Assembly: GCA_015231405.1 (NCBI GenBank)
Contig: JADGBR010000002.1
Span: 4,642 to 68,641, forward strand
Direction: 5' to 3'
Source: Candidatus Omnitrophota bacterium
GTDB taxonomy: Bacteria > Omnitrophota > Gorgyraeia > Tantalellales > Tantalellaceae
Length of the DNA: 64,000 bases
The notes beneath the pieces were generated by a model. The model was given only the letters and a program-made list of their open reading frames with translations, ran no database searches and was not told where the DNA came from. The position numbers were made by a program, and so were the translations under genes. This document shows positions 1-63,342 of this stretch, one piece after another; position 1 is the first letter of the stretch, and each line of letters starts with the position of its first letter.

Positions 1-895
1 TGACAGGCTTATATCTCATTTGTGCTTCGAGGGGCACTATACCGAAATCCTCTTCCCCGGGAAAAATAAGCGCCTTACATCCCGCGTAATAATCTTCAAG
101 CTCAGCGTCATTGACCCACCCCGCGAAATGTATATTCCCCCCGGCCTTTTTTTTCAACTTCTCATACTCAGTGCCGGTCCCAACGATGACTAATTCCTTC
201 TTATTCTTATTGAAAACCTCGACGGCCAGATCCACCCTCTTGTACGGGACTAAGGCGGAAACCACGAGGTAATAAGTCGACCCTTCGGGGACCATAGACC
301 ATGGACCATGGACCATGGTATTTTGGGGATGTGGTTCACTAACGGGCGGATATATCACGGCAGCGTCCCTTCCGTAATACTCTTTTATCCGGTCCTTCAC
401 GGCGTTACTATTGGCTATGAAGTGGTCGACTCCCTCATTCGTTTTCAGGTCCCATTTTTTCATCCAGCTAACTATCCACTTGATCAGCTGCTTCTTCAGA
501 ACGTTCTCACGTGAAAAATACTCGTCAAAAAATTTCCACGCGTACCTGATAGGCGTGTGGCAATAACATATATGCAGCGCCCCTTCCTTCTTTCTCGCTC
601 CCTTAGCCGCGCAGTGGCTCGATGAGATGACCAGATCATACGCCGAAAGGTCGAAGCTTTCTATCGCCCATGGGAAAAATGGCAGAAAACTCCTGTAATT
701 CCTTTCTATGCCTGGTATTCTCATCAGTAAAGACGTTCTTATATCCATTTTTTCCATATCCGCCGCGACACTGCCCTTCTTATGGACCAGGGTGTATATT
801 GTCGATCCCGGGTACAGCTCCAAAAGAGCTTCCAGACATTTCTCCCCACCACGCATGCCGGTCAGCCAGTCATGGACGATCGCTATCTTCCTCAT
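1..895 (-). CDS. Glycosyltransferase family 4 (partial, continues beyond window start)
   Basis: Open reading frame on the minus strand from ATG at 893-895 to the window edge. The N-terminus MRKIAIVHDWLTGMRGGEKCLEAL is a classic GT4 start. The ATGA overlaps the stop of the next gene. It is missing from the ORF track only because no stop codon falls inside the window. Confidence 0.7.
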   Translation of the reverse strand, partial: MRKIAIVHDWLTGMRGGEKCLEALLELYPGSTIYTLVHKKGSVAADMEKMDIRTSLLMRIPGIERNYRSFLPFFPWAIESFDLSAYDLVISSSHCAAKGARKKEGALHICYCHTPIRYAWKFFDEYFSRENVLKKQLIKWIVSWMKKWDLKTNEGVDHFIANSNAVKDRIKEYYGRDAAVIYPPVSEPHPQNTMVHGPWSMVPEGSTYYLVVSALVPYKRVDLAVEVFNKNKKELVIVGTGTEYEKLKKKAGGNIHFAGWVNDAELEDYYAGCKALIFPGEEDFGIVPLEAQMRYKPV

Positions 896-2011: not shown

Positions 2012-2092
2012 GTAATTCGTGGTTCGTGGATCGTGATTCGCAGTTTGGTAATTAATAGATCCAACCTACAACCCCGAACCACGAATCACGAA
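2012..2092. repeat. Heptamer-periodic intergenic palindrome. Left arm ATTCGTGG TTCGTGG ATCGTGA TTCG, a loop of about 35 nt, right arm CGAACCACGAATCACGAAC.
   Basis: Read directly from the sequence. It fills the 112-bp gap between two minus-strand genes. Confidence 0.8.
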
Positions 2093-4404: not shown

Positions 4405-4423
4405 GAGAACTCCGGTGACTATT

Positions 4424-4470
4424 GGACCATAGACTATGGACCATGGTCTATGGTCTATGGTCTATGGTCC
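4424..4470. repeat. Heptamer palindrome, family A: GGACCAT AGACTAT GGACCAT | GGTCTAT GGTCTAT GGTCTAT GGTCC
   Basis: Read directly from the sequence. It covers the whole 43-bp intergenic gap and extends into the last 7 codons (TIDHRP) of the upstream GT2 gene. Confidence 0.8.
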
Positions 4471-5164
4471 TCTTACTACCCCCCGCTATCCTATATTTAA
4501 ACAGCGCCAACACCGTCGACACCCCGTCCCTCCATGTTATCTTCTTCCCTTCATCATACCCGCGACCGCGGTACGAGATAGGCACTTCACGTATCTTCAC
4601 ACCCCGGAGGAGCAGTTTCGCCGTGACCTCAGGTTCGAATTCGAACCCGTTAGACCTTATATCCATGTCCTTAAGTATATCCGTTCTCACCATTTTATAG
4701 CACGTTTCCATGTCTGTCAGGGACGCTCCAAACATGACATTCGTGAGAAAGGTCAGAAACCAGTTGACCATATAATGCGGAAGCGACGTAGCTTTCCAAG
4801 TCGAAAGGAACCGCGACCCGAATACGGCACTCGCGCCAGTCTTTACGGCGACCGAGACCAGTTTGGTTATTTCCGCGGGAGAATATTCCATATCCGCGTC
4901 CTGGACTATCACATATTCTCCCGTAGCGCGGGAAAGAGCCGTACGTATCGCCCCCCCCTTCCCCTTGTTCACCTCGTGGTAATAGACCGAAATTCCGTTC
5001 TTCCCTCCAGGGAACTTTTTGCCGAGTATTTCCCTGGTTCCGTCCGTGGATCTATCGTCGACGACTATTATCTCTTTTTCGCACGGGAGGTCGACTAGGA
5101 GCTGAAGGACGTCCCCTATTGTTTTTTCCTCGTTATATACGGGAACCAATATCGATATTTTCAT
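4448..5164 (-). CDS. Glycosyltransferase family 2
   Basis: MKISILVPVYNEEKTIGDVL...IIVVDDRSTDGT (GT2 DXD region). The start is placed at the ATG that overlaps the stop of the upstream gene (ATGA at 5161-5164). Confidence 0.8.
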   Translation of the reverse strand: MKISILVPVYNEEKTIGDVLQLLVDLPCEKEIIVVDDRSTDGTREILGKKFPGGKNGISVYYHEVNKGKGGAIRTALSRATGEYVIVQDADMEYSPAEITKLVSVAVKTGASAVFGSRFLSTWKATSLPHYMVNWFLTFLTNVMFGASLTDMETCYKMVRTDILKDMDIRSNGFEFEPEVTAKLLLRGVKIREVPISYRGRGYDEGKKITWRDGVSTVLALFKYRIAGGSKRTIDHRP

Positions 5165-6216: not shown

Positions 6217-6224
6217 ACGTTTCC

Positions 6225-6310
6225 GTGGGACGTGGGACGTGGGACGTGGGACATAAAACGTTAACTATGCTATAACTCGCACGTCCAACGTCCCACGTCC
6301 TACATCCTAC
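6225..6310. repeat. Heptamer palindrome: (GTGGGAC)x4, 30-nt loop, then GTCCAAC GTCCCAC GTCCTAC ATCCTAC
   Basis: Perfect 4x tandem heptamer at 6225-6252. Degenerate reverse-complement copies at 6283-6310. Confidence 0.85.
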
Positions 6311-6342: not shown

Positions 6343-7461
6343 CTATTTTTTCCTGCCAAACTGCCTAACAAGCACATCCAAAATCCGTTCCGCCGCGCGG
6401 CCGTCGCCGAAAGGATTTTTCCAATCCCGCTTACGGCTCAGCATCACGCGCGCGCTTTTTACTATGTTGACGGGATCTATTCCGGCTATTATGTTCGCGC
6501 CCACATCGACCGTTTCAGGCCTTTCGGTGGAATCACGGAGCGTTACGCACGGCACTAAGAGAACGCACGCCTCCTCCTGCACTCCTCCGGAATCCGTAAG
6601 TATAAGCGCCGCGTTAGCCTCGAGCGCGATGAATTCGGTGAAGGCGCATGGCTCCATAAGTTCCATCCATCCGGAAACGGATATGCCGAATTCTTCCATC
6701 TTCTTCACGGTACGCGGGTGGGCTGGGAATATGATCGGAAGCTTGTGGTCCACTCCGATCTTCTTGATCGCTTTCAATATCCCGACGAACCTTTTTTTAT
6801 CGTCGACGTTCTCCTGTCTGTGGATAGTGAGAAGAATATATCCGCCCTTATCAGGAGAGCCCGGCAAATTCCCGGACCATTCCGGCCTTTTGAAGTAAAG
6901 CGTGTCGACGAAAGTATTCCCCGTCACAAAAACCTTTTTCCTTTTCACTCCCTCCGATAAGACTATATCCCTCGATTTTACCGTCGGGACAAAAAGCAGG
7001 TCTGACAGATGATCCGCCATTATCCTGTTTATCTCTTCCGGCATGCTCCTGTCGTAGCTCCTGAGCCCGGCCTCTACGTGAGCGAGCTTGATATCGAACC
7101 CGGTGAACGCCTTTGTGGTCGATATTTTTGACGCGGTGAGAGCGCCGGCTAAAGTGGAATTCGTATCCCCGTGGACCACAACAACGCCCGGCAGCTCCTT
7201 AAGAAGTATCTGCTCGAGCCTCATCATCATCCTGCCCGTGTGATCTCCCTGCCTCCATGGGGCCTTGGACCGTATGTTCAGGTTATAGTCCGGCATCGGC
7301 AGGTCAAGCTCCCGAAAAAACCGTCTCGACATCACGGTCGAATAATGCTGGCCGGTATGGATCGTTACGAACGGTATTTTTTCCCTTACGCTCAACCTGA
7401 TGACCGAACTCAATTTAATGATCTCGGGCCTGGTCCCGAATATGAAAGCTATCTTCATCAT
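6343..7461 (-). CDS. wecB: UDP-N-acetylglucosamine 2-epimerase (non-hydrolysing)
   Basis: MKIAFIFGTRPEIIKLSSVI...HTGQHY is the canonical WecB/MnaA N-terminus. Length 372 aa. Confidence 0.85.
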   Translation of the reverse strand: MMKIAFIFGTRPEIIKLSSVIRLSVREKIPFVTIHTGQHYSTVMSRRFFRELDLPMPDYNLNIRSKAPWRQGDHTGRMMMRLEQILLKELPGVVVVHGDTNSTLAGALTASKISTTKAFTGFDIKLAHVEAGLRSYDRSMPEEINRIMADHLSDLLFVPTVKSRDIVLSEGVKRKKVFVTGNTFVDTLYFKRPEWSGNLPGSPDKGGYILLTIHRQENVDDKKRFVGILKAIKKIGVDHKLPIIFPAHPRTVKKMEEFGISVSGWMELMEPCAFTEFIALEANAALILTDSGGVQEEACVLLVPCVTLRDSTERPETVDVGANIIAGIDPVNIVKSARVMLSRKRDWKNPFGDGRAAERILDVLVRQFGRKK

Positions 7462-7464
7462 GCT

Positions 7465-8628
7465 CTAAATGAAAAACTCAAGTATATTCTCTTCCCCCGC
7501 CTTTTTGCCGATCCTTTCAAGCGATATCAACGCCTGCAGCGCGAACATCGTGCACCATGAATTAATATGATCCGTCTTTTTTCCGTCGAGCGTGTATCCG
7601 TAATAGAACCCGCCCTTTTGGTATTCGTCATCGAGGAGCTGGAACGATAGAAGACATTTTTTCGCTTTACCGAGTTTCTCCACATCGCTCTCAGCGAGAT
7701 ATCCCAGCTCACGCTGTAAAGAGCCGAGCCTGATGACCTGGGCAAGCGCGTCCGACCTGTAATAGTTGACGAATTTGTTATCAACGTATTTCTTGGGTAT
7801 CCCTCCGTCCCCGGCCTGGTTATCAAGCGCCCACCGCACCGCTTTTACCGAAGACTCTATGAGATCTTTCCTGTTGAAGCGGACCCCGGCGTAAAAAAGC
7901 CCTTCCCCCGAATACATATGAGGGTGCAAATGCGTACTCCTGTCGGTCCTCGCGGTTATGAACCTGCCGGACGGGTCCTGGAATTTCATGGCGGCCTCGG
8001 ACAATTCGATCACCGTGTCCTTATACTCCCTCGTCTTGGTCGCCTCGTATAGGTCCGTGAACCCGAGCGCCAGCTTCGCGAGATAACTGCCGCTTTGCGT
8101 TGACCATTTCCAGTTGTCGTCAATTTTCTGGTTGGTGCGGGCATTGTAGACGGCGTAAAAAAGGCCGTCGGGACGTTTCATTTTTCGGAGCAGGAACCCG
8201 GCTATTCTTTCCGAAAGCTCGAGGTATTTTTCGTCCCTGAATATCTTATAGAGATTTATGAGCCCGTAAAGCACCATGCCGTTGTCGAAAGCGTAGATGT
8301 TCTCGCTCTCGAAAGAATAATTCTCGGATTCCTTAAGCGCCTTCAGATAATATCTTGTTTTGACGCCGCCGCACGGGTGGAGAGCCTTTCTCTCCAGCCA
8401 CTGGGCCGCTTCGCGCGCCTTGTCCAGATAGTTCCCGTCGAAGAACTTATTGATGAACAAAAGGGTCGTTATCCCGTAGCCCGTGATCTCGGAATAAACG
8501 AACGAGTAATTATCGTCTTTGATATCGTACCAGGCGTTGAACCCTCCTTTTTCGGTCCCACCGGTATTCTGTATCCCCGAGGTCAATATCCAGTCCCGGG
8601 CCATCATCACTTCTTTACTGTATTCCAT
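7465..8628 (-). CDS. Hypothetical protein, likely (alpha/alpha)6-toroid fold (AGE or C5-epimerase-like superfamily)
   Basis: 387 aa, soluble, aromatic-rich repeats; C-terminal NSWCTMFALQAL. Fold assignment is only an impression. Confidence 0.3.
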   Translation of the reverse strand: MEYSKEVMMARDWILTSGIQNTGGTEKGGFNAWYDIKDDNYSFVYSEITGYGITTLLFINKFFDGNYLDKAREAAQWLERKALHPCGGVKTRYYLKALKESENYSFESENIYAFDNGMVLYGLINLYKIFRDEKYLELSERIAGFLLRKMKRPDGLFYAVYNARTNQKIDDNWKWSTQSGSYLAKLALGFTDLYEATKTREYKDTVIELSEAAMKFQDPSGRFITARTDRSTHLHPHMYSGEGLFYAGVRFNRKDLIESSVKAVRWALDNQAGDGGIPKKYVDNKFVNYYRSDALAQVIRLGSLQRELGYLAESDVEKLGKAKKCLLSFQLLDDEYQKGGFYYGYTLDGKKTDHINSWCTMFALQALISLERIGKKAGEENILEFFI

Positions 8629-10969: not shown

Positions 10970-12697
10970 TCAGATCACTTTCCGACGGGAAATGAATTTT
11001 CTCGCGATCATTTTCAATGTTTTTTTAATGGAACCGCATTTAAGGTCTTCCGAGGGAGTTTCGGGCTCGTAATCCAACGCTAACTTCACCGATATTTTAA
11101 TTTTTTCGGATGCGGACAAACGCGATATTTCACCGTCAAATCCTGGGTCCGGCGGGGGATAATCACCGGACCCGTGGTCATTTGAGCCTTTCCTTTTCAT
11201 CACTCTGTATTTTCCTATTGTCCAGAACTCATGGATATCATTCATAGAGACTTGTTTAAGAGCCCGCCTATTGACGGCGTGGTCAAGTATGGCCGATAGT
11301 ATCGCGGGTACTTCCGGATATTTCGGGCTTGTATGCGCGTAAACTATGACCGGTATGGAATTGGATATCATGTAGTCTATAGCATTTTCATAATACATTA
11401 TGATCGCCTCTATGTTCCCGTACCTCTTATCGAGAAAGAGTTCCGGGGCCACCGGAAATACGGGGATCTGGAGAACACGCGACCAACCGTCCCTAAGACA
11501 TGGATACGACGGATATCCGGAATAATCGTATGCGAAATCGGACGAATATAAATAACCTTCATCCTCCAGCGCCTTCATAAGTGAGGGGACATAGCGCCCT
11601 GTAGGGGCAGCGAACCCGGTCGTCACGATACCGATATTCCTGAAAAACTCTCCGGCTTTTCTTATATTATGCCTGTTGGTGGCGTAATCCCCGTAGGCGG
11701 CGTGATAATATCCGTGCGAACCCACGTCTATCCCGAGACCACGGCATTTTATTATCTCGTCAGGAGCTTTCTCGAACGATCTTACGTTAAAAAATATCGT
11801 TATCGCGCGGCTGTACTTCGAGAAAACCGGATAATACGCGTTGAACGTCCCCTTCTCATACTCGTCAGCGTCTATCCTGAGACAAAAGCTGTCGGAGGGG
11901 AACGTCTGTTCATTTTTTGAACGCCCGAAAGACCTTTCGGAAGCGACCCTTTCCCTGACCCTCATCCCCCGGGGTCCGAAATCCTTGTAAACCGACCGGC
12001 GGGCTTTTTTAAAAAAACCTGTCCCGGCATCCTCCAGGCCCATCCTGTCGGAAGCTTTATAGGACAGGCTGAGTGACCCGTCCTGTGCTATACCGGCGCA
12101 TGCCCCGCCCTCTATCATCCTCGCGGTTTTATCCAGAAGCTCCGCCCCGAGCGAGAGGTTCTTCATCCTTAACGACCGAAGATCATCATGGGGACGCACC
12201 TTAAGGGTTTTCCGCATCAGGATATCGCCCGCGTCCAGATCTTCGCTTATAAAATGAACTGTTACGCCTATCTTATCGATATCGTTATTGCGAAGAGCCC
12301 AGAATTCAGAATCGGCGCCCCTGTAATACGGCAGTATGCCGGAATGGAGATTTATGGCCCCTCGGGAAGCCTTACCGAAAATGTCGGCCGAAAGTTTACG
12401 CGTCCCGACGACAATGATAAGTTCCGGGGATATTTCCCCGAGCGCTTTCCCGGATTCCGGGGAGTTTATGTCTAGGACCCTGACAACTTTCAGGGCGGGG
12501 TATCTTCGCGCGAGCGCCTCATAATTCATTGCAAGTATCGCTCCATTAAGGAGATAAAGGGCTCTCTTGACCCTCGCCTTTAAGGTCACGGGCTTGACCT
12601 CGTAAACGATGGCCCTAATGTCATGACCCCGGGAAAGAAGCTTCCCCGAAACCATAAGGCCGTCAAGAATATCGCTGGTAAGTAACGCTATCCTCAT
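10970..12697 (-). CDS. Fusion protein: N-terminal formyltransferase domain (Fmt/ArnA-N-like) plus C-terminal NodB-type polysaccharide deacetylase/deformylase (ArnD-like)
   Basis: INLHSGILPYYRGADSEFWALRNND matches the formyl_transf core. The C-terminal half has NodB homology (RIDADEYE...GSHGYYH...). Confidence 0.6.
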   Translation of the reverse strand: MRIALLTSDILDGLMVSGKLLSRGHDIRAIVYEVKPVTLKARVKRALYLLNGAILAMNYEALARRYPALKVVRVLDINSPESGKALGEISPELIIVVGTRKLSADIFGKASRGAINLHSGILPYYRGADSEFWALRNNDIDKIGVTVHFISEDLDAGDILMRKTLKVRPHDDLRSLRMKNLSLGAELLDKTARMIEGGACAGIAQDGSLSLSYKASDRMGLEDAGTGFFKKARRSVYKDFGPRGMRVRERVASERSFGRSKNEQTFPSDSFCLRIDADEYEKGTFNAYYPVFSKYSRAITIFFNVRSFEKAPDEIIKCRGLGIDVGSHGYYHAAYGDYATNRHNIRKAGEFFRNIGIVTTGFAAPTGRYVPSLMKALEDEGYLYSSDFAYDYSGYPSYPCLRDGWSRVLQIPVFPVAPELFLDKRYGNIEAIIMYYENAIDYMISNSIPVIVYAHTSPKYPEVPAILSAILDHAVNRRALKQVSMNDIHEFWTIGKYRVMKRKGSNDHGSGDYPPPDPGFDGEISRLSASEKIKISVKLALDYEPETPSEDLKCGSIKKTLKMIARKFISRRKVI

Positions 12698-28396: not shown

Positions 28397-28918
28397 TCAG
28401 CGCCTCAATAAGGGTTTGATGCTCTTTATTATTTTTCCGCCTTCCCTGTACAGGTCATCCAATCCGCGGTCATTCTTTATGGTGAGATCCGGACCTAAGG
28501 GAGGCGGGAACGCTATATCCACTCCGACAACGTTCTTTATTTCGCCGTTAATAGCCTTTTTGTATATGCCTTTAGAGTCCCTCTGCACCAGGACGCCAAG
28601 ATCGGACTCGATATATACCTCGTAATAATCCCTGATGTTCTCCCTCATCCATCTCTGGCTTTCGTGGAACAGGGACAATACGGCGAAGATCACGTTTATT
28701 CCAGACGAATCAAGGTATTTACAGAGCCTTGTTATGCGGCCGGCGTTCTTCTTCCTGTCCTCGATCGTATGGCCGAGATCGTCGCCCATTATCTCCCTGA
28801 GTATATCCCCGTCCAAAAAAACCAGATTAGGGTATCCCGGTTTAAGTTCCTCATATACGCGTTTACCAAGCGCCGTCTTCCCGGAACCCGACATCCCGAT
28901 TATCCATAAGACCATCAA
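28397..28918 (-). CDS. Adenylylsulfate-kinase-fold kinase (CysC paralog; candidate Cj1415-like cytidine diphosphoramidate kinase)
   Basis: P-loop GMSGSGKT, LDGDILRE and RDSKGIYKKAINGEI are APS kinase motifs. 173 aa. Confidence 0.75.
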   Translation of the reverse strand: MMVLWIIGMSGSGKTALGKRVYEELKPGYPNLVFLDGDILREIMGDDLGHTIEDRKKNAGRITRLCKYLDSSGINVIFAVLSLFHESQRWMRENIRDYYEVYIESDLGVLVQRDSKGIYKKAINGEIKNVVGVDIAFPPPLGPDLTIKNDRGLDDLYREGGKIIKSIKPLLRR

Positions 28919-29813: not shown

Positions 29814-32003
29814 TTATAACGCTATCACTACCCGTTTACCCGCCTTGAGGTATTCCAGTGCGCTGTTTACGTGTAGGTTCAAAGCTTCAACGAATTCATT
29901 TTTCACCGCCAGAGGGACCTCGGCGACGATATTACTCTTTTCTCCCCTGTCCTTTTTGAGATCGTACATCTCAAAGACCTCATTTCTCCGCTCGAAGTTC
30001 GCGAAAGAAGAGCAGTCGAATTCCGTCCTGTAGATGAAAGAATAATTCCTGTCGCGAAGAGATATCGAGCACCTTTTGACGTAGATATCCTCGCTTATCG
30101 CGAATCGCCTTCCGGCTAAGGCCGCCTCATCCAAAAGGCTTTTACCCGAAAAACGCTGGCCTTTCGGGTCTATTCCGGCAAGGTCCAGGACAGTCGGGGC
30201 GATATCGATATTTGCCTCAACGGGTGAATCTTCGAGCCTCGGAACGAGCCCTAAACCCGCCGGGAATTTGACCGACATCCCCACGTTAACGAACTCGCCG
30301 TACAGGTCGAACTTCCCTATCACGCCGTGTTCAGCGAAATTCGTGCCGTGATCACCCATGATGATCACCAGAGAATCGTCATATTTATCCATATCCTTGA
30401 GGTAAGCGACGAATCTGTCGATGTGATGCATGCATAGGTCCAGTTCGGCTTTGTACAGATCGTTAAAATACAGCAATTGTTCATTTGTAAAGTCCAGCGC
30501 TCCCGGGACCTTCCTGTTCGCCTTCACGTCGCGAACTACGTCTTCAGTGGAGATCCTGTTAAGGACCCATTCCCGGTCCCGCGGAGGATAATAAGGCCAA
30601 TGAGCGTCCAGAATATGCAGGTAATAGAACTGGCGGCCTCTCGCCCCTGATTTTCTGTCCGCTTCCATTGCCCACGAGAAGGCCCTCTCCACGGTAGACT
30701 CGTTAAGTTCCTTATCGGTGATCCTGTAGTGATACCTGTCAAAGCCCCGGGAATAACCGTAATTCGGGACAGTCCTCGGCCCGGTCGCGTAGCCGTTAGT
30801 GATATATCCGTTCTCTTTCAGGATCTCCGGCAACAGCCTTATCTCTGAGCCTATCCCTTTCTGCGTCCTCGGATGGTTCACCCCGTGGTAAGATGGAAAA
30901 AGACCGGAGAGGAACGCGCCATAAGTGGGTAATGTCCATGGGCCCTGAGTCCAGGCGTTAGAAAATACGACGCTGTCCTTTATCATGCCGGAAAGGGCAC
31001 CGAACCCGCGCTCTTTCATCCCCTCGGCCGAAAGGAAATGGTCGCTCCTCAAACTGTCAACGACCAGAACGTAAATATTCATGTCTTTTCCGGGAGCACA
31101 CCGGGCACCGCCGAAAAGAGGTAAACTCACATAACACTTCGCGCCTTGGGCCCCTTCCGCCGAAAATCTTATCGATTTGAATTTGTCGTGTTCATGTCCG
31201 TTCCCGAGCGGCACAAGGCAGTCATTCCATACCCTGTCCCTGAAATACCGGTTGGGGTTGATGTCCTTGATGAAAAGATCTTCCTCGCCGCCGGATCCGC
31301 GCACCCCTTTTACCGTGAGCCTCGGAGCCTTAGGGGAAATCTCTTTTACCCCTACTCCCAAAGGCAGGACTTCATTATCGCCGACCGCCACATCGTGGCT
31401 CTGGCCGTTCCTGACCGCGAAACAGTTCCTCAGTTCATCACCTATCTGTACCTTCCCCGTCCCGCTCCTCGGCACTCCGGACGGAAGAGCGTCGTGTACC
31501 GACCTGTCCAGGCCTATGGCTCTGGCCACCGTCATGTCAAAATGCTTTCTTTTAGACAAATAGGCTTTATAAGCGAATAACATGACGGCATTGGCCGCGA
31601 TAAAAGCGGCCAACGCAGGGGCGGTTCCCACTCCCAAAAGACATAAACCCGATACCACGGCGACACAGAGCTGAAAACAGGCATCCCTCACGCAAACTCC
31701 GTAATTCGTCCTATAGATCATGAACCAATATCCCGAAAGAAAGTAGGCCAGATAAAAGAACGAAGCCACGCCAAGAGCGAAAGAAAGGATGACCCGGATA
31801 TCGGCAAGGAACACCGCTCCGCCGCCCAACAAATCCCGAAAGAATATATAATTCCCGGCCACACCAACTGAACATATGATTCCCAGACGCATATCCTTCC
31901 CCGCCATGCGTATAAGCTCAAGCCAGAAAATGAGGAAGCGGCCCGCTCGCGTCCATTCCGAGATCTTCAGCTTAAAAATACTGAAATGGTTATCCACTGG
32001 CAC
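29814..32003 (-). CDS. Membrane-anchored sulfatase / alkaline-phosphatase-superfamily protein (LtaS/EptA-like architecture)
   Basis: N-terminal multi-TM region followed by a sulfatase-type domain (NIYVLVVDSLRSDHF...GPWTLPTYGAFLSG). The canonical C/S-x-P-x-R motif is not intact. Confidence 0.55.
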   Translation of the reverse strand: MPVDNHFSIFKLKISEWTRAGRFLIFWLELIRMAGKDMRLGIICSVGVAGNYIFFRDLLGGGAVFLADIRVILSFALGVASFFYLAYFLSGYWFMIYRTNYGVCVRDACFQLCVAVVSGLCLLGVGTAPALAAFIAANAVMLFAYKAYLSKRKHFDMTVARAIGLDRSVHDALPSGVPRSGTGKVQIGDELRNCFAVRNGQSHDVAVGDNEVLPLGVGVKEISPKAPRLTVKGVRGSGGEEDLFIKDINPNRYFRDRVWNDCLVPLGNGHEHDKFKSIRFSAEGAQGAKCYVSLPLFGGARCAPGKDMNIYVLVVDSLRSDHFLSAEGMKERGFGALSGMIKDSVVFSNAWTQGPWTLPTYGAFLSGLFPSYHGVNHPRTQKGIGSEIRLLPEILKENGYITNGYATGPRTVPNYGYSRGFDRYHYRITDKELNESTVERAFSWAMEADRKSGARGRQFYYLHILDAHWPYYPPRDREWVLNRISTEDVVRDVKANRKVPGALDFTNEQLLYFNDLYKAELDLCMHHIDRFVAYLKDMDKYDDSLVIIMGDHGTNFAEHGVIGKFDLYGEFVNVGMSVKFPAGLGLVPRLEDSPVEANIDIAPTVLDLAGIDPKGQRFSGKSLLDEAALAGRRFAISEDIYVKRCSISLRDRNYSFIYRTEFDCSSFANFERRNEVFEMYDLKKDRGEKSNIVAEVPLAVKNEFVEALNLHVNSALEYLKAGKRVVIAL

Positions 32004-57633: not shown

Positions 57634-57654
57634 GAGATCTCCCTATTCAGCTAT

Positions 57655-57757
57655 CCGCATAGCGCATAGAGCAAAGCGCATAGCGTATTTGTATTCTATA
57701 TGTGGCTGGTCCCTCTTGCAATTCGTGCGCCATGCGCTCTGCGCTTTGCGCTATGCC
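57655..57757. repeat. Heptamer palindrome: CGCATAG CGCATAG AGCAAAG CGCATAG, 42-nt loop, then reverse-complement copies
   Basis: Left arm 57655-57685 and right arm 57728-57757 are reverse complements. The element fills the gap between two CsbB-like genes and supplies the last 2 codons of the upstream gene. Confidence 0.8.
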
Positions 57758-58476
57758 GAATACTCCCCCCGCAAATCCGCCATCTTGATCATTACAAGGC
57801 TCTTGAACGATCTTATCCCATCCCTAAGGGGCTTAACCTTCGACGTCAGTTTATGTTCCCACTTGACCGGAACTTCCGTCACCCTCAGCTTGAATTTTTC
57901 AGCCAGGAAAAGGACTTCCGTATCGAAAGACCAATCGTCCATTTTCTGCGCCGAAAAGAGTTTTTTCGCCGCTTCGCTCCTAAAGAGCTTGAAGCCGCAA
58001 TTAAGGTCCCGAACGGAACAGCCGAATATTATCCTCGAAAGCAATATATATACCTGCCCCATCATCACCCTCGATAACGGTTCCGGAACAATGATCTGCG
58101 AACCCCTCTCGCGCCTTGTCCCGATGGCTATGTCGGAATGTTTAATGACCCCGAGAAATTTGTCTATTTCCGATATCGACGTCGAATTGTCGGCGTCCAT
58201 GAAAAGGACGACATCGCCCCTCGACGCCATGATACCCTTACGGACGGTATACCCCTTGCCTTTATTGACCTCGTTCCTGAGGACCTTGAACTCCTTGAAA
58301 AGACGGCGGCCCGAACATGCTTCACCAAAAGTCCCGTCGCCCGAACCGTCATCGACGACTATCACTTCGCTTGAATAGTCTTTTTTTGAAAGAAAGCCCG
58401 ATATCTCCCGAAGAGTATCCCCGATATTTTTTTCCTCGTTATACGCAGGTATGACCACTGAGAGATAAATATCCAC
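57751..58476 (-). CDS. Polyprenol-phosphate sugar synthase (GT2, DPM1/CsbB-like), second copy
   Basis: LSVVIPAYNEEKNI...VIVVDDGSGDGT...MDADNST. Confidence 0.75.
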   Translation of the reverse strand: MDIYLSVVIPAYNEEKNIGDTLREISGFLSKKDYSSEVIVVDDGSGDGTFGEACSGRRLFKEFKVLRNEVNKGKGYTVRKGIMASRGDVVLFMDADNSTSISEIDKFLGVIKHSDIAIGTRRERGSQIIVPEPLSRVMMGQVYILLSRIIFGCSVRDLNCGFKLFRSEAAKKLFSAQKMDDWSFDTEVLFLAEKFKLRVTEVPVKWEHKLTSKVKPLRDGIRSFKSLVMIKMADLRGEYSA

Positions 58477-59636
58477 TATGCCCCTTTTTTAATGAATTCC
58501 GTGACCTTCTCTATGACATACGCTATTGCTTCTCCGGAAAGCTCAGGATAGACCGGCAGGGATATTATCTCATCCGATAATTTCTCCGATACCGGATAAT
58601 CTTTTTTATCGTAACCGCATGAAGCGTAACATTTCTGGCTGTATAACGGTACCGGATAATACACCCTGGCCCCTATCCCGTTCGCTTCCAGAAAATCCTT
58701 AAGTCCTTCCCGGTCCTTGACCGCTATGGTGTATTGGTGATAAGTGTGTACGTTCCCCGGCGCCACTTTAGGCGTCCTTATCGGCAGACCTTTAAATGCG
58801 GAGTCGTATTTAGCGGCTACACTTCGCCTCGCTTCGAGCCATTTGTCAAGATATCTGAGTTTCACTCTGAGAACAGCCGCCTGCAGGCTGTCCAGTCTTG
58901 AGTTATACCCCAATTCTTCATGTATGTATTGCGTCTTGCTCCCGTGAACTCTTAACGACTTTACATGGTCGATGAGATCCTTATTATCGGATATCACCAT
59001 ACCCCCGTCGCCGAAACCGCCGAGATTTTTACTCGGGAAAAAACTTAAACAGCCCGAATCACCCAAAGATCCGGCCTTTTTACCCCTATAGGTAGCCCCT
59101 ATAGCCTGGGCCGTATCCTCTATTACCTTAAGCCCGTATTCCCCGGCGATATCGAGTATCCGCGTCATATCCGCGCATTGCCCGTACAGGTGCACCGGAA
59201 TTATGGCCTTGACTTTGCCCTGCTGACCATGGCCCATGGACGATGGACCATGGACCTTGGCGTTGTGGTTCTTCAAATACTCTTCCACCTTATTTACGTC
59301 GATGTTATACGTTTCCGGATCTACGTCCACGAATACCGGCCGGGCTCCGACGATAGATATAGCTTCGGCCGTAGCCATAAAAGTGAACGGCGTAGTTATC
59401 ACCTCGTCTGCCCGGCCTATTCCGAGCGCGACGAGCGACAATATCAAAGCGTCTGTCCCCGAAGCGACTCCGGAAGCGTATTTCGTCCCGGAATAAGCGG
59501 CCACCTCATCCTCGAGCGCTTTGACCTCTTCAGATAAGATGAACTTCTGGCTGCCGATGACCCGGAGAACCGTCTCATCTATTTCTTTCTTAATGCTTTT
59601 ATACTGCGCTTCGAGATCTAGTAATGGTACTTTCAT
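58476..59636 (-). CDS. DegT/DnrJ/EryC1/StrS-family PLP-dependent sugar aminotransferase
   Basis: 386 aa. GSQKFILSEEVKALEDEVAAY, GTDAL, AIIPVHLYG and SFFPSKNLGGFGDGG motifs. It contains an in-frame heptamer-repeat insertion (HGPSSMGHGQQ). Confidence 0.85.
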   Translation of the reverse strand: MKVPLLDLEAQYKSIKKEIDETVLRVIGSQKFILSEEVKALEDEVAAYSGTKYASGVASGTDALILSLVALGIGRADEVITTPFTFMATAEAISIVGARPVFVDVDPETYNIDVNKVEEYLKNHNAKVHGPSSMGHGQQGKVKAIIPVHLYGQCADMTRILDIAGEYGLKVIEDTAQAIGATYRGKKAGSLGDSGCLSFFPSKNLGGFGDGGMVISDNKDLIDHVKSLRVHGSKTQYIHEELGYNSRLDSLQAAVLRVKLRYLDKWLEARRSVAAKYDSAFKGLPIRTPKVAPGNVHTYHQYTIAVKDREGLKDFLEANGIGARVYYPVPLYSQKCYASCGYDKKDYPVSEKLSDEIISLPVYPELSGEAIAYVIEKVTEFIKKGA

Positions 59637-59749
59637 TATTTTCCTCTCTGTTCTTTGGTTGGTTTTTATTCACCATTTTCGGGCGCGATAAATCGCGCCC
59701 CTACATCACCCTAAACTCGCTAACGAGCTCGGGCCGGGGGACCCCGCCC

Positions 59750-61561
59750 CTACTCTTCATCATACTCAAGGGCGTTCTTCTCCGCAAGATGCCGCCTGAT
59801 CTTGCCGACTGAATTCTCGACATCCTCTGGCCGTTCTATTACCAGATCCGGCTCGATATCGGTCGTGACCTTATTACCTACCCAGATAACCGTAATATTA
59901 TCGGACTCGACCGACGTCCGTATCAGATCTATGTCTTCCCGCGAGAATTCTATGGCCGTCACGATGAGTATCATCCCAGCGTCTATCATTATATGCGAAA
60001 CTTCGGCCAGACGCCTTATATGTTCTTCTTTATCGTTCCCTGCCCCCTTTATATCGGCGTCCACGCCGTAAAGCACGTTGACCATACCCAGAAAATAAAC
60101 GATCTTCCCTTCGCTGAATAGGTCTTCCTCAAGCTTCTTAGCTATCGTTTTTCTCGCCGCGTCCTTTTCTCCGGTAACGACAATGAGCCAGGGCTTCTGG
60201 CCATATCGCCTGTGCCTTAGGCGATATGGTATCGCGCTTTTCTCCCATTTAATGTCCCTCTGTATGACCTTGTCCCTTGACCATGATTGCTTATCTTTCA
60301 GCGGTTCAAGAATTATCCCCCCGCCGGCTATGTTGTTGTCCGACACCAGAACGAACCTGGATGTTTCCCGGATATCGGAGACAATGTCAAAGGACATCGG
60401 TCTCTTAAGTTTGATCACACATTCCCCTACTTTGTTCCTTAAAAGAGAATTTTCGCCTGTATCCTTATCCAAGTCTTCCGGGTCAAAGATCTTATCGATA
60501 CTCTCAAGGACCGCGCTTCCCCTGGCCGTTCCAAGCTTGAGCGTGTATTCCTTATCCTTTACCATTGGCGACTCTGACAACCAGAAAACGCTGGCCCGGA
60601 GTCGCGAAGTTACATTCGGTCTAGGGCCTTCTTTCTTAACGGCTATCTCACCCCTTTTGACGTATATTTCCTCCGCTAACGTAAACCCCGGAGAATCTCC
60701 TGCCGAAGCTTCCAGCTTCGGCGCTGAATTGAACGTCTCTATGGACTTTAGCCTGGCACATTTTCCTGAAGGCAAAAAAACGATCTCATCGCCCGCCTTT
60801 ACGCTTCCAGAAACGACCCTGCCCGCGACTATCCTTCTGGAATCACCGAATTTTGTGAATTTATAAACATCCTGCACCGGCATCCTGAAAGGCCCTTCCG
60901 TTAATACGGGGATACCATCGAAACCGTCAAGCGACTCCAAGACCGTCCGCCCGCCATACCAGGGGGTCTTTTCGCTTCTTACCGTAACGTTATCCCCCAT
61001 AAGTCCGCTTGCGGGTATGAAGGAAACCGGAACTAACCCGACTTTGTCGAGAAACCCGGAAAATTCCGATTTCACGGCTTCGAATCTGGAACGGTCGAAA
61101 GATACAAGGTCCATCTTATTTACGATGACAACGATAGTTTTTATCCCGAGAACACCTAGGAGATACCCGTGCCTTTTCGAGTTCTCCCTTACGCCTTCCA
61201 AAGCGTCAATGACAAGGAACGCCGCGTCGGCGCGAGAGGCTCCTGTCACCATATTGCGGATGAACTCCACATGCCCCGGCGCGTCGATCACTATATAATC
61301 CCTTTTTTTTGTCTTGAAGAACACCCTTGCCGAATCAATCGTTATACCCTGAGATTGTTCATCCTTGAGGGCGTCTATCAAAAAAGCGTATTCGAAAGGC
61401 CTGGAATTCAAACGGCACGTCTCCCTGACGCTTTCTAGCTTCCCCTGAGGAAGTGCCCCCGAATCGGCTAGAAGCCTCCCCAGCACGGTACTCTTCCCGT
61501 GATCCACATGCCCTGTGAACACCACGCTGAATGTGTCTCTGTCCTTTACTGCCAACTCCAT
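59750..61561 (-). CDS. cysN: Sulfate adenylyltransferase subunit 1 (CysN GTPase) with a degenerate C-terminal APS-kinase-like domain
   Basis: [14 protein letters not shown] and NKMD GTPase motifs. The C-terminal 170 aa is homologous to APS kinase but the P-loop is replaced ([11 protein letters not shown]). Confidence 0.8.
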
Positions 61562-61573
61562 CGCTCCTCGTTG

Positions 61574-61666
61574 CTTTCAGCTATCGGCTTTCAGCTATCA
61601 GCTATCAGCTTTTAATGTAGGCTAAACACAATAAAACTGAAGGCTGAAAGCTGGAGGCTGATAGCT
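61574..61666. repeat. Heptamer palindrome, family E copy 1: (CTTTCAG/CTATCAG)x5, loop TAATGTAGGCTAAACACAAT, then CTGAAAG-type copies
   Basis: Read directly from the sequence. It lies in the cysN-cysD gap. Confidence 0.8.
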
Positions 61667-62546
61667 ACATATACCCCTCACGCCTAAGCGTCTCAAGCCC
61701 CCCACCGTCCTCACGATCCTGTGCCCTTCCCGAACGCTCGGCGATATTCGAGAATTTACCGGTCCTAAGCTCTTCGACTATTTCAGCCGGATCTTTTGCG
61801 TCGGACTCCACCGGGAAAGTGCATGGGTAGCAGCCAAGCGACCTGTATCTTTTACCGCCACCTTTACTGTAATACAATGAGACAGTAGGTATCTTTTCCC
61901 TGTCTATGTATTCCCACACATTAAGTTCGGTCCAGTCAAGAAGCGGGTGGATCCGGAGATGCGCTCCCGGGGGGAAATCGGTATTGTAATAGTTCCAGAA
62001 TTCAGGCGGCTGTTCCCCTATATCCCAGGCGTTCTCTTTATCCCTGGAAGAGAAATATCTTTCCTTGGAACGGGACCCCTCCTCGTCAGCTCTTATCCCG
62101 GCTATTATGCCCGTAAAAGGATCGCCGTTCGGATCTTGAACATACTTGCCCTTACCATGGTCAAACCTGTAACGTACACCTTCGGCGCTCAAAACCTCTT
62201 TCAGTGCCTGTGTCTTTAAAAGTCCGCAGCATGTGATACGGTCGGTTTTGCCTGCGGGATAGGAATTTCCTGACCCGATAGCAGTCTCATTCTTGCCATA
62301 GACCATATTAAGATGCCACTCACGCGTAATCTTATCGCGGTATTCGATCATTTCGGGTATTTTGTAAGAAGTGTCTATATGTATGAGCGTAAAGGGGACA
62401 TGCCCGAAAAAAGCCTTTCTCGCGAGCCAGAGAAGCACGGTCGAATCCTTCCCGATTGACCAAAGCATCCCCAAATTCTTAAAATTGGCATAAGCCTCCC
62501 GTAGAATATATACACTCTTATTTTCTAAGATATCTAAATGATTCAT
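61665..62546 (-). CDS. cysD: Sulfate adenylyltransferase subunit 2
   Basis: [40 protein letters not shown] and ETLRREGYM align with E. coli CysD. Confidence 0.85.
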
Positions 62547-62549
62547 TTT

Positions 62550-62641
62550 TTTCAGCTTTCAGCTATCAGCTTTCAGCCTTCAGCTTTATTGGGGTTAGCT
62601 TACATTAAAAGCTGACAGCTGATAGCTGAAAGCTGAAGGCT
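62550..62641. repeat. Heptamer palindrome, family E copy 2 (inverted relative to copy 1, judged from the loop sequence)
   Basis: Arms TTCAGCT TTCAGCT ATCAGCT... The loop ATTGGGGTTAGCTTACATTA is the reverse complement of a near-copy of the copy-1 loop. Confidence 0.8.
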
Positions 62642-62647
62642 AAGAGC

Positions 62648-63160
62648 TTACAAGTATCTCTGAATATACTCTATCACTTTCCGAACCGACTCCTCAACAC
62701 TCTCCACGCCAGTATCAACGACCAGCTCCGGCCGTTCGGGCGCTTCATAAGGATCGCTTATGCCGGTGAACCTGTCTATCTCGCCGCACCGCGCCTTCTT
62801 ATACAACCCCTTGGCATCTCTTTTTTCGCACTCCCCGACAGAGGCCGAGACATAGACCTCAATAAAAGTCGAACATCTTTTCCTCGCGAATTCCCTGGAG
62901 GCTTTATAGGGGCTAATGAACGAAGCCAGGACGATGACGCCGTGTTTCTCCAATAACGATGCTATGAAACCGATCCTTTTTATATGCTCATTACGCTCTT
63001 TTTCCGTGAACCCCGTGCCCGGAAAAATATCTCTGACCGCGTCCCCGTCGAGCGTCTCGACCTCATATCCCTTTCCGGACAAATACTTCGCGATCTCTCG
63101 GGCAAGGGTGCTCTTTCCCGATCCGGAAAGACCGGTAAACCATAAAACGAACGGTGTCAT
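62648..63160 (-). CDS. cysC: Adenylylsulfate kinase
   Basis: WFTGLSGSGKSTLA P-loop, LDGDAVR and RDAKGLYKKARCGEI motifs. 170 aa. Confidence 0.85.
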   Translation of the reverse strand: MTPFVLWFTGLSGSGKSTLAREIAKYLSGKGYEVETLDGDAVRDIFPGTGFTEKERNEHIKRIGFIASLLEKHGVIVLASFISPYKASREFARKRCSTFIEVYVSASVGECEKRDAKGLYKKARCGEIDRFTGISDPYEAPERPELVVDTGVESVEESVRKVIEYIQRYL

Positions 63161-63177
63161 TGCCTTTTGCCACCCCC

Positions 63178-63342
63178 ATTTAGTGATGGGTGATGATATC
63201 TGTGGGATAACTTGCAGTGATGTATGACGGGTGAATGTTCATGCTGAAAACTGTCGAATATTCAGGATGACCATTGACCCCTCACTCATCACCACAGATT
63301 GCCAACTCACAACGTCACCCATCACTACAAATCACCCCTATT
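63178..63342. repeat. Long imperfect intergenic palindrome (GTGATGG-rich arms of about 60 nt)
   Basis: The left arm ...TTAGTGATGGGTGATGATATCTGTGG... matches the reverse complement of the right arm ...CCACAGATTGCC...TCACCCATCACTACAA... Confidence 0.6.

Follow-up and report, generated by a model that had tools for sequence, protein, structure and literature searches.

Inverted heptamer-repeat hairpins on both sides of cysD in an Omnitrophota operon, and a cross-phylum concentration of period-7 arrays at the cysD-cysN junction

Among the long simple sequence repeats (SSRs) of prokaryotes, those of heptanucleotides are the most abundant, and polymerase slippage has been offered as the reason; they have been described from cyanobacteria, Xanthomonas and Beggiatoaceae, and some occur as inverted pairs (PMC4679880, PMC4692102). 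Here we describe two elements of this kind in a 64,000-nucleotide (nt) stretch of DNA from a Candidatus Omnitrophota bacterium (contig JADGBR010000002.1, positions 4,642 to 68,641; hereafter 'the window'). The elements, which we name W1 and W2, occupy in opposite orientation the gaps on either side of cysD in a cysC-cysD-cysN operon. Although heptanucleotide repeats have been recognized for decades as the commonest long simple repeats of bacteria, spacers built from them are a widespread class that has been little studied.

Several other described systems offer points of comparison. Repetitive extragenic palindromic (REP) elements are co-transcribed with their neighbors and stabilize upstream mRNA, for example at malE-malF. 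In rRNA operons, complementary sequences flanking 16S and 23S rRNA pair to form stalks that are cut by RNase III. The short tandemly repeated repetitive (STRR) sequences of heterocystous cyanobacteria comprise the specific heptamers CCCCAGT, TTGGTCA and CAACAGT. The 5' end of a REP carries a conserved GTAG or CGTC tetranucleotide (PMC3733652); Correia elements are bound by RNase III, and then either cleaved or protected (PMC2649163); in H. influenzae, the heptanucleotide repeats that lie upstream of hmw1A and hmw2A have a modulating effect on expression, and their copy number differs between strains (PMC2651432).

We find that the pair is real, and that it is best regarded as a duplication specific to this lineage, not as a conserved device of cysD. 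What is new is a concentration of 7-nt periodicity at the cysD-cysN junction across about eight phyla, together with a recurrence of the inverted bracket in Muiribacterium. The locus is a concrete case in which repeat-built hairpins constitute the entire gaps of a three-gene operon, with a relative that lacks one copy as a natural control. If the enrichment holds up, it would reflect either a general rule for the birth of intergenic DNA between once-coupled genes, or an unrecognized tuning of sulfate activation.

Two inverted paralogs in the gaps of a cys operon

The three genes (the Candidatus Omnitrophota metagenome-assembled genome (MAG) proteins for this region are MBF0215791-3) all lie on the minus strand, in one operon with the order cysC-cysD-cysN. 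In window coordinates, the features are as follows:

59750..61561, minus strand: cysN, GTPase subunit, with an extra C-terminal domain resembling adenosine 5'-phosphosulfate (APS) kinase (weak match)
61570..61667, minus strand: W1, heptamer-arm hairpin that fills the cysD-cysN gap, recognized by Tandem Repeats Finder (TRF), inverted-repeat search, folding, loop match and an ortholog in the relative L201
W1 parts: left arm 61573-61612 (GCTTTCA/GCTATCA units), loop at about 61613-61632, right arm 61633-61667
61665..62546, minus strand: cysD, sulfate adenylyltransferase subunit 2 (PF01507), the bracketed gene
62550..62650, minus strand: W2, inverted W1 paralog that fills the cysC-cysD gap, absent from the relatives L201, L202 and L203
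W2 parts: left arm 62550-62587, loop at about 62588-62607, right arm 62608-62647, abutting the cysC stop codon (62648-62650)
62648..63160, minus strand: cysC, APS kinase

W1 and W2 are paralogous, mutually inverted copies of a palindromic element of about 95 nt, the arms of which are built from the heptamer CAGCTWT. TRF delimits four period-7 arrays (61573-61610, 61633-61666, 62550-62587 and 62608-62641), each of 4.9-5.4 copies, and a repeat finder aligns 61573-61666 with 62554-62647 at 85% reverse complementarity across 94 nt. The two loops match at 19 of 22 bases in reverse complement. When the 22-nt loop TAATGTAGGCTAAACACAATAA was searched with up to three mismatches, the window yielded one further match, at 62586-62607 on the opposite strand; 100 dinucleotide shuffles yielded none. 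Their homology is settled, because a loop that is itself non-repetitive recurs in the window and never in the shuffles. In the arms, CAGCTWTCAGCT, with up to one mismatch, occurs 14 times in the window against 0.33 expected, and 12 of these 14 occurrences are inside W1 or W2. Thus an earlier, sequence-only reading of the locus was right that two inverted heptamer-hairpin copies with near-identical loops sit exactly in the cysN-cysD and cysD-cysC gaps; its gene assignments were correct, and the loop similarity proved significant under shuffling. Its statement that this is the only clearly homologous pair in the window has to be narrowed: W1 and W2 are the sole pair with a shared unique loop, but a common heptamer is also found at the GGACCAT-type sites listed below.

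The elements make up essentially the entire intercistronic gaps. W1 begins with the cysD stop codon (61665-61667), which is the first triplet of its stem on the mRNA, and it ends 11 nt before the cysN ATG; it is followed on the mRNA by GAAAGCAACGAGGAG, and the cysN Shine-Dalgarno sequence, GAGGAG, is located just outside and downstream of the stem. W2 starts immediately behind the cysC stop; on the mRNA, the 7 nt between its end and the cysD ATG are AAAAAAA. The arrays of both elements are degenerate: no more than 2-3 identical units stand in succession. As predicted for the mRNA (minus) strand, the fold of W1 has a free energy of -41.2 kcal/mol (z -5.2) and that of W2 -51.6 kcal/mol (z -8.2), values that were unmatched by any shuffle. 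Neither element resembles an intrinsic terminator, and there is no U tract after either of them on the mRNA; promoter and terminator scans returned no site at W1 or W2, and no excess relative to shuffles. No match to Rfam 15 was obtained in the window at the gathering threshold; at a permissive threshold there were sub-threshold matches to eukaryotic miRNA-precursor hairpins, i.e., generic long-hairpin look-alikes.

Period-7 arrays at cysD junctions and elsewhere

W1 and W2 belong to a class of period-7 arrays, often with inverted arms, that form nearly the whole of short co-directional gaps in this genome and in many other bacteria. Our comparative set comprises 80 species-level loci from many phyla that were found through CysD (71-79% identity). 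The next gene downstream of cysD is a co-oriented cysN in 66 of these loci, and cysC is the immediate upstream neighbor in 53. Across 81 loci there are 29 gaps with 7-nt periodicity, as against two or fewer for any other period from 4 to 11. These arrays are strongly concentrated next to cysD: they occur in 17 of 60 cysD-adjacent gaps versus 12 of 469 gaps elsewhere (Fisher p = 1.7e-10), and when only co-directional gaps are considered and the window is excluded, the corresponding figures are 14/50 and 6/301 (p = 5e-9). With the window included, arrays are located directly downstream of cysD, i.e., in the cysD-cysN gap, in 13 of 33 cases (39% of opened junctions) and directly upstream in 4 of 27, whereas every other distance bin contains 0-4.5% (about 2% of other gaps overall). 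A count that is independent of gene calls gives, for the 300 nt that follow cysD, 0.68 arrays per kb, versus 0.026 per kb elsewhere. Arrays follow cysN in only two of 53 loci; the hot spot is therefore the cysD-cysN junction and, more weakly, cysC-cysD.

The period recurs, and the sequence does not: the heptamers of the cysD region all differ (TAGTCGA, TGGTCGC, AATGTTG, AATTATT, GGGAATC, AAGGTTT, CAAAGTG, GTGAATA and GTGACGA). Their hosts fall into about eight phyla, namely Omnitrophota, Muiribacteriota, Calditrichota, Planctomycetota, Fibrobacterota, Ignavibacteriota/Bacteroidota, Gemmatimonadota and, represented by a MAG, a deltaproteobacterial lineage. Inspection of the cysD-cysN arrays revealed no common sequence, stop-codon content, Shine-Dalgarno likeness or base bias. 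A general selection for structured gaps around cysD can be rejected, as minimum free energy (MFE) z-scores there equal those of other co-directional gaps. The cysD-cysN gap is shorter than 25 nt in 31 of 66 loci, which suggests that this junction was ancestrally tight, so that any gap there would be young spacer DNA made by 7-nt slippage; we regard this as a partial explanation. The heptamer-repeat papers (PMC4679880, PMC4692102) do not mention cysD, a literature search for the heptamer strings returned only unrelated primer sequences, and the literature searched holds no explanation for the cysD-cysN concentration or for the Muiribacterium bracket.

That bracket was identified in Candidatus Muiribacterium halophilum (locus L005), which, alongside the window, is one of two loci among 82 in which homologous inverted elements lie on both sides of cysD. 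L005 contains three hairpin copies of about 98 nt, with GGGRTTT units that are unrelated to W1 and W2, in the orientations + - + (before cysD, between cysD and cysN, and after cysN); the copies are 91% and 84% complementary. Inverted CTTTACG/CGTAAAG arrays lie on either side of its cysC. Of 98 gene blocks with a gap at each end, the two with the most complementary brackets are both cysD, with z -20.9 in L005 and z -20.0 in the window. We also noted that inverted repeats flank every gene of the cys operon in L005 (9072-13023), and that the middle hairpin copy could pair with either neighbor.

Some additional structures were seen near cysD in the comparative loci. A conserved hairpin directly follows the cysD stop in L001 (~1775-1830), L003 (~6805-6870), L203/L204 (~7775-7860) and L205 (~1-60); it has the loop GGAAnnnAGTGAAC and a covarying stem, TTAYG...CRTAA, and another hairpin, CATCCC(C)...GGGGAT, comes after it. 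In 1.9 Mb of fetched DNA the loop motif is confined to three independent places; there is no Rfam match, and we consider this hairpin a candidate for a new cis-acting RNA in the cysD-cysN spacer. In L016, L018 and L022 (Phycisphaerae/Sedimentisphaerales), the first ~70 nt after cysD include a small hairpin, AATCTCGACnTTGnCGAGAT (AATCCCGAC...GGGAT in L018), which is preceded in L018 and L022 by degenerate heptamers. In an Ignavibacteriales MAG (L079), cysD is flanked by a 322-nt direct repeat of 83% identity that includes a small ORF (~6470-6790 and 7830-8150), and also lies between reverse-complementary heptamer arrays, CTATTCA upstream and GTGAATA downstream, in a 13-kb locus with 13 period-7 arrays. 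L203 contains a dispersed REP-like short palindrome of the GGGACAGTCCC type in several gaps (1645-1843, 7771-8000 and 11144-11340), including its 230-nt cysD-cysN gap.

The CAGCTWT heptamer itself is widespread. Exact arrays of three units occur on more than 120 metagenomic contigs with G+C contents of 37-73%, and 27 of the 70 that could be classified are of the hairpin type. Placement is co-directional (25 gaps) or convergent (20) and seldom divergent (3), a distribution like that of elements located within operons and at the 3' ends of mRNAs. The loops of these metagenomic arrays are unrelated to those of W1 and W2. We considered whether such arrays travel with cys genes and rejected the idea: CysD, CysN or CysC is encoded on none of 80 array-bearing contigs. 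Unrelated loops and the lack of nearby cys genes together indicate that the CAGCTWT heptamer is convergent. In several CAGCTNT arrays (L141, L159 and L129), orientation reverses exactly at a CAGCTG core, just as it does at CCATGG in the window at 4417-4471; these flips support the inferred origin of the hairpins by strand switching at a palindromic core within an array made by slippage. CAGCTNT/GGCTGAN arrays are common among L081-L160, some with more than ten perfect units and most variants with a GCTGA core, and serial blocks of different heptamer unit variants are present in L088, L127 and L141.

Within the window, 13 segments have 7-nt periodicity, compared with 0-1 for each other period from 5 to 12. 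At least five heptamer-arm hairpins in addition to W1 and W2, each with its own heptamer, lie in co-directional gene gaps (z -4.2 to -6.7). The further elements are:

290..318, no strand assigned: direct array of four GGACCAT units, nearly self-complementary through CCATGG
2016..2092, minus strand: heptamer hairpin with TTCGTGG/CCACGAA arms, between a GT4 gene and an unassigned 405-residue ORF (-46.2 kcal/mol, z -6.3)
4417..4471, minus strand: loopless palindromic array, GACCATA...GTCTATG, that flips at a CCATGG core, in a GT9/GT2 gap (-30.4 kcal/mol, z -5.0)
6224..6310, minus strand: heptamer hairpin with CGTGGGA x4/TCCCACG arms, in the gap between GT4 and UDP-GlcNAc 2-epimerase genes (-55.4 kcal/mol, z -6.7)
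57650..57760, minus strand: heptamer hairpin with CGCATAG/CTATGCG arms, between two GT2 genes (-55.1 kcal/mol, z -4.2)
59227..59260, minus strand: GGACCAT-type array inside the DegT aminotransferase ORF (58476..59636)
63175..63320, minus strand: long, degenerate heptamer hairpin with GTGATGA/GTGAGGG/GTCAATG units, in the gap between a UXS-like gene and cysC (-55.4 kcal/mol, z -4.9)

The GGACCAT/GACCATA unit is common to three of these sites (290-318, 4425-4469 and 59227-59260). The array within the DegT gene coincides with a 17-residue insertion (about NHNAKVHGPSSMGHGQQ) relative to the solved homologs 7b0d and 3frk, which argues that the process producing heptamer arrays is mutational and takes no account of coding status; such intrusions into coding regions also call for caution in annotation. 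The hairpins at 2016-2092 and 6224-6310 have a CGTGG core in common and alternate along the DNA with the GGACCAT sites. That at 63175-63320 has about 60 imperfect pairs, with single mismatches regularly at every fifth position, and looks like an old, decayed member of the class. Three G+C-rich hairpins without heptamer periodicity lie in the cysN-DegT gap (59637-59749; -42.9 kcal/mol, z -3.2); one of them, GGGCGCGATAAATCGCGCCC, is followed by GAAAAUGG and not by a U tract. Downstream of the first GT4 gene, positions 1-891, where the GGACCAT array is found, contain no ORF above 96 codons on either strand; they may represent a gene in decay or an extended non-coding stretch.

As for gene context, Pfam assigns almost the entire window to glycan biosynthesis (GT2, GT4, GT9, epimerases, DegT, NeuB, PMT-like, methyltransferases, a second APS kinase and a sulfatase-like protein). 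The second, stand-alone APS kinase and the sulfatase-family protein are encoded at 28397-28918 and 29814-32003, and in an Omnitrophota relative (L202) a sulfotransferase (1463-2401) is encoded 4.7 kb upstream of cysD; these three genes suggest that the cys genes supply 3'-phosphoadenosine 5'-phosphosulfate (PAPS) for glycan sulfation and not for cysteine synthesis. A Pfam scan of 52 window proteins revealed no transposase, REP-associated tyrosine transposase (RAYT) or integrase.

History, constraint and competing explanations

The next relatives of the window's CysN are only ~60% identical to it. For CysD the closest relative is encoded on a 2.4-kb JGI contig (L201), with 91% amino-acid identity; the cysD genes are 85% identical at the nucleotide level and 69% at third codon positions. 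L201 carries cysC, cysD and cysN in the same order and orientation as the window, and its cysD-cysN gap contains a W1 ortholog in the same orientation (75 of 91 bases identical, 18 of 21 in the loop) with one 7-nt unit fewer in the 3' arm. Its cysC-cysD gap, of 58 nt, contains a GTGCACG-type repeat that is unrelated to W2. The existence of this ortholog in the closest relative makes W1 the probable older copy. In more distant relatives the cysC-cysD junction is a tight 23-24 nt: in L203, which is syntenic with the window, and in L202 (24 nt), which has the cysC-cysD-cysN core in common with it. The bracket around cysD is thus lineage-specific and not conserved. When the spacers of related genomes are compared, as the sequence-only reading had proposed, the one at W1 proves to be orthologous and the one between cysC and cysD unrelated, an outcome that in part counts against that reading, and cysD is never inverted. 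Pairwise identities among W1, W2 and the L201 element are 85, 82 and 85%: with the three elements approximately equidistant, a gain of W2 here is not distinguishable from its loss in L201.

Further tight junctions in L203 correspond to hairpins in the window: UXS-cysC is 20 nt and GT2-GT2 is 27 nt, and their window counterparts are 183 and 117 nt of hairpin. Together with cysC-cysD, these window gaps are 101-183 nt in length and made of hairpins. W1 has diverged from the L201 element at 18% of sites, compared with 31% at cysD third codon positions, and the changed columns are distributed as 10 of 64 in the stem and 9 of ~27 in the remainder; from these alignments, some constraint or homogenization appears to act on the element.

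Bearing these observations in mind, we consider it somewhat probable that heptanucleotide-repeat palindromes filled junctions that were once tight, and that they now serve as weakly constrained intercistronic RNA stem-loops. In this process, 7-nt units would expand by replication slippage, and arrays with a palindromic unit core (AGCT/CAGCTG here; CCATGG, ACGT and GCGC in neighboring elements) would switch strand to generate hairpins, so that heptamer sequences would accumulate at originally tight gene junctions. The one-unit difference between W1 and its L201 ortholog, along with the DegT insertion, indicates that such a mutational process is at work. W2 would be a second copy, set in reverse orientation into the adjacent gap; this lineage would have gained it, or else the relative would have lost it. 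Transcribed within the cysC-cysD-cysN mRNA, W1 and W2 would form stable stem-loops or, jointly, a duplex of ~96 bp around cysD. Their stems might act as REP and Correia elements do, as barriers to 3'-exonucleases and/or as RNase III substrates by which the polycistronic mRNA is split and its three cistrons are uncoupled in translation.

A number of our own results weigh against this account. A covariation analysis of three sequences, which are too few for power, revealed one compensatory pair out of 32. Three lineage-specific substitutions in W1 leave C·A mismatches in mRNA-strand pairs, and W1 folds 10 kcal/mol better on the antisense strand than on the mRNA strand, which argues against strong selection at the RNA level; together with the single compensatory pair, these findings indicate that selection on exact pairing is weak. 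Some cysD-adjacent arrays are hairpins and others are unstructured direct repeats; since several of the latter lack structure, hairpin function cannot be the common denominator. Furthermore, generic gap filling does not explain why arrays are ~15-20 times commoner at cysD-cysN than in other gaps, even within the same loci, nor why the same inverted bracket is present in a second phylum. In our reading, selection on W1 and W2 appears weak, and the arrangement is not a conserved cysD-specific device.

The foremost rival, which we view as doubtful but well worth weighing, is that the elements are functionless by-products: neutral or selfish DNA that arises by 7-nt slippage and template switching and is tolerated wherever a junction stretches. 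Heptamers differ freely between sites and lineages, an array is found even inside a coding region, W1 has accumulated uncompensated stem changes, the bracket is missing in the closest relative, and cysD-adjacent gaps are no more structured than others. This proposal is harder to reconcile with the slower divergence of W1 compared to cysD third positions, with the expectation that stems of -41 to -55 kcal/mol inside operons would hardly be without effect on the mRNA, and with the junction-specific enrichment beside cysD in ~8 phyla, which is difficult to obtain from a position-blind process.

A bolder proposal, which we consider improbable, is that cysC-cysD-cysN is a cross-phylum target of a hitherto unrecognized intercistronic element defined by its 7-nt periodicity and not its sequence, whose inverted copies, in the most developed cases (the window and L005), would enclose single cistrons in long-range RNA stems and so set the CysC:CysD:CysN ratio for PAPS production. 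The mRNA would be processed by RNase III, end-protected or held in mutually exclusive conformations, and the concentration of arrays at the junction would reflect function, not just gap filling.

More improbable again is a stem that encloses the cistron, in which the inversion itself was selected: W2 and W1 would pair via a loop-loop kiss, and RNase III cleavage would yield a cysD mRNA with protected ends, and separate cysC and cysN. W2 being the reverse complement of W1, the two RNA copies can pair over the full length. The calculated W2:W1 duplex (-134.3 kcal/mol) is more stable than two separate hairpins (-92 kcal/mol), the MFE structure of the 1131-nt RNA includes 96 long-range W2:W1 pairs enclosing cysD, and a duplex of the loops alone has -14.3 kcal/mol. 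By analogy with rRNA stalks and antisense kissing complexes, an mRNA-processing structure around cysD is physically plausible: as in a processing stalk, the complementary flanks pair better than their local alternatives. That the top two complementary brackets both enclose cysD, and that L005 has the + - + copies plus inverted arrays at cysC, is also in its favor. On the other hand, the bracket is absent from L201, L202 and L203; any two copies of a palindrome score as a strong duplex whatever their orientation, and the agreement in orientation has a chance of ~1/8; the W1-specific substitutions disrupt base pairs inside W1 and also those with W2; and co-transcriptional folding and translating ribosomes favor local hairpins. 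The suggestion in the sequence-only reading of a cysD-specific attenuation or mRNA-processing structure is consequently left divided: the favorable duplex, the L005 architecture and the enrichment at cysD junctions speak for processing, while the unconserved bracket, the similar hairpins at glycosyltransferase genes, the uncompensated changes in W1 and the lack of resemblance to a terminator speak against it.

It is unlikely, too, that W1 and W2 are copies of a mobile miniature element, akin to a MITE (a miniature transposable element with inverted repeats) or a REP doublet forming a hairpin (REPIN), in which a ~95-nt palindrome was moved in trans, by a RAYT for example, into the neighboring gap. 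The unique loop common to two opposite copies would fit, as would the size and shape, which resemble those of REPINs and Correia elements (PMC3116915, PMC2649163), and the placement downstream of genes, which is typical. However, the W-loop is present in just two copies in 64 kb and, among 201 fetched loci, only in the L201 ortholog; there is no conserved GTAG/CGTC tag (PMC3733652) and no transposase among the scanned window proteins. No target-site duplication was found (the flanks read CGTT|...|ACAT for W1 and TTTTTT|...|TTAC for W2), and as the L201 cysC-cysD spacer has no sequence in common with the W2 gap, no empty site is definable. Moreover, every other hairpin in the window differs in sequence, which fits a local origin better than a spreading family.

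We think it very unlikely that the arrays are contingency repeats that tune spacing or structure before cysN and cysD, or that they provide a 7-nt register read by an OB-fold protein of the cold-shock or S1 type that binds about 7 nt per domain, which would account for a period that is conserved when the sequence is not. A locus for PAPS synthesis inside a surface-glycan cluster is a classic setting for phase variation, W1 differs from its L201 ortholog by a one-unit indel, hmw1A/hmw2A offer a precedent (PMC2651432), and an interaction between CspB and heptamers was raised in PMC4679880; it is also the period, not the sequence, that recurs at cysD-cysN. Against this, the degeneracy of the W1 and W2 units should keep slippage rates low. 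Finally, a DNA-level switch, in which the 94-bp inverted repeats turn cysD on and off by inversion or mark an exchangeable cassette (the sequence-only reading had raised a recombination-prone cassette), is largely refuted and retains next to no probability in spite of its invertible-segment geometry, given that cysD points the same way as cysC and cysN here, and the same way as cysN in 66 of 66 loci where the two are adjacent, that the arms are only 85% identical, that no recombinase was found among the scanned proteins nearby and no attC R'/R'' boxes are present, and that L201 without W2 maintains the same gene order and cysD orientation.

Comparison with known element classes

Two assignments were considered and rejected on straightforward grounds. 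W1 and W2 are not cyanobacterial STRR sequences, as their units are CAGCTWT and their host is Candidatus Omnitrophota. Nor are they integron gene cassettes: upon reading, attC boxes (R'' RYYYAAC and R' GTTRRRY) are absent, gene order is conserved across phyla, and there is no integrase among the scanned window proteins.

The resemblance to REPs, bacterial interspersed mosaic elements (BIMEs) and REPINs (PMC3116915, PMC3733652) is that of ~100-nt imperfect palindromes which are extragenic and often inside operons or after genes; REPINs, moreover, are inverted doublets that fold into one long hairpin. W1 and W2 differ in that they have no conserved tag, show no single high-copy family within the 64 kb of the window, are accompanied by no RAYT among the 52 window proteins scanned, and, unlike REPs, have arms with 7-nt periodicity. 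As to the tag, GTAG is found only in W1, where it arises from the ATG and TAG of cysD, and is absent from W2 and from the L201 ortholog. The Correia repeat enclosed elements (CREE/NEMIS) of Neisseria (PMC2649163) are likewise intergenic hairpins, of 100-150 nt, and CREE are co-transcribed and alter the expression of neighboring genes. However, CREE constitute a single conserved family of mobile elements, in which terminal repeats are defined and the TA target is duplicated, whereas the elements described here are diverse in sequence, built from repeats and without duplication.

The rRNA stalks, like the cysD bracket, enclose a functional unit between complementary segments that lie far apart and are able to pair into a long double-stranded stem. 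Those stalks are conserved and have been shown experimentally; the cysD stem is a thermodynamic prediction that competes with local hairpins and with translation, and it is absent in the nearest relative. The repeats at hmw1A and hmw2A are similar to W1 and W2 in being 7-nt units just upstream of genes for surface-related functions, but they are long, perfect, direct arrays in promoters, in contrast to degenerate, inverted arrays inside an operon; W1 and W2 also appear too degenerate for a typical contingency locus.

With at least three tandem units each, and a period-7 excess over neighboring periods, W1 and W2 qualify as heptanucleotide SSRs. They share with the intergenic heptamer families (cyanobacterial STRR; GGGAATC and GGGGAYT in Xanthomonas/Nostoc; TAACTGA in Beggiatoaceae) a tandem 7-nt organization, a mostly intergenic location, a preference for period 7, variation in length between relatives, and occasional inverted pairs that are able to form stem-loops; one comparative locus, L034, even has GGGAATC-type units next to cysD, as in the Xanthomonas/Nostoc family. 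In the described families, a genome has one heptamer or a few, and these form mostly direct repeats. Here, each site has its own heptamer, most are hairpins with unique loops, and, unlike in the known families, the arrays make up whole intra-operon gaps.

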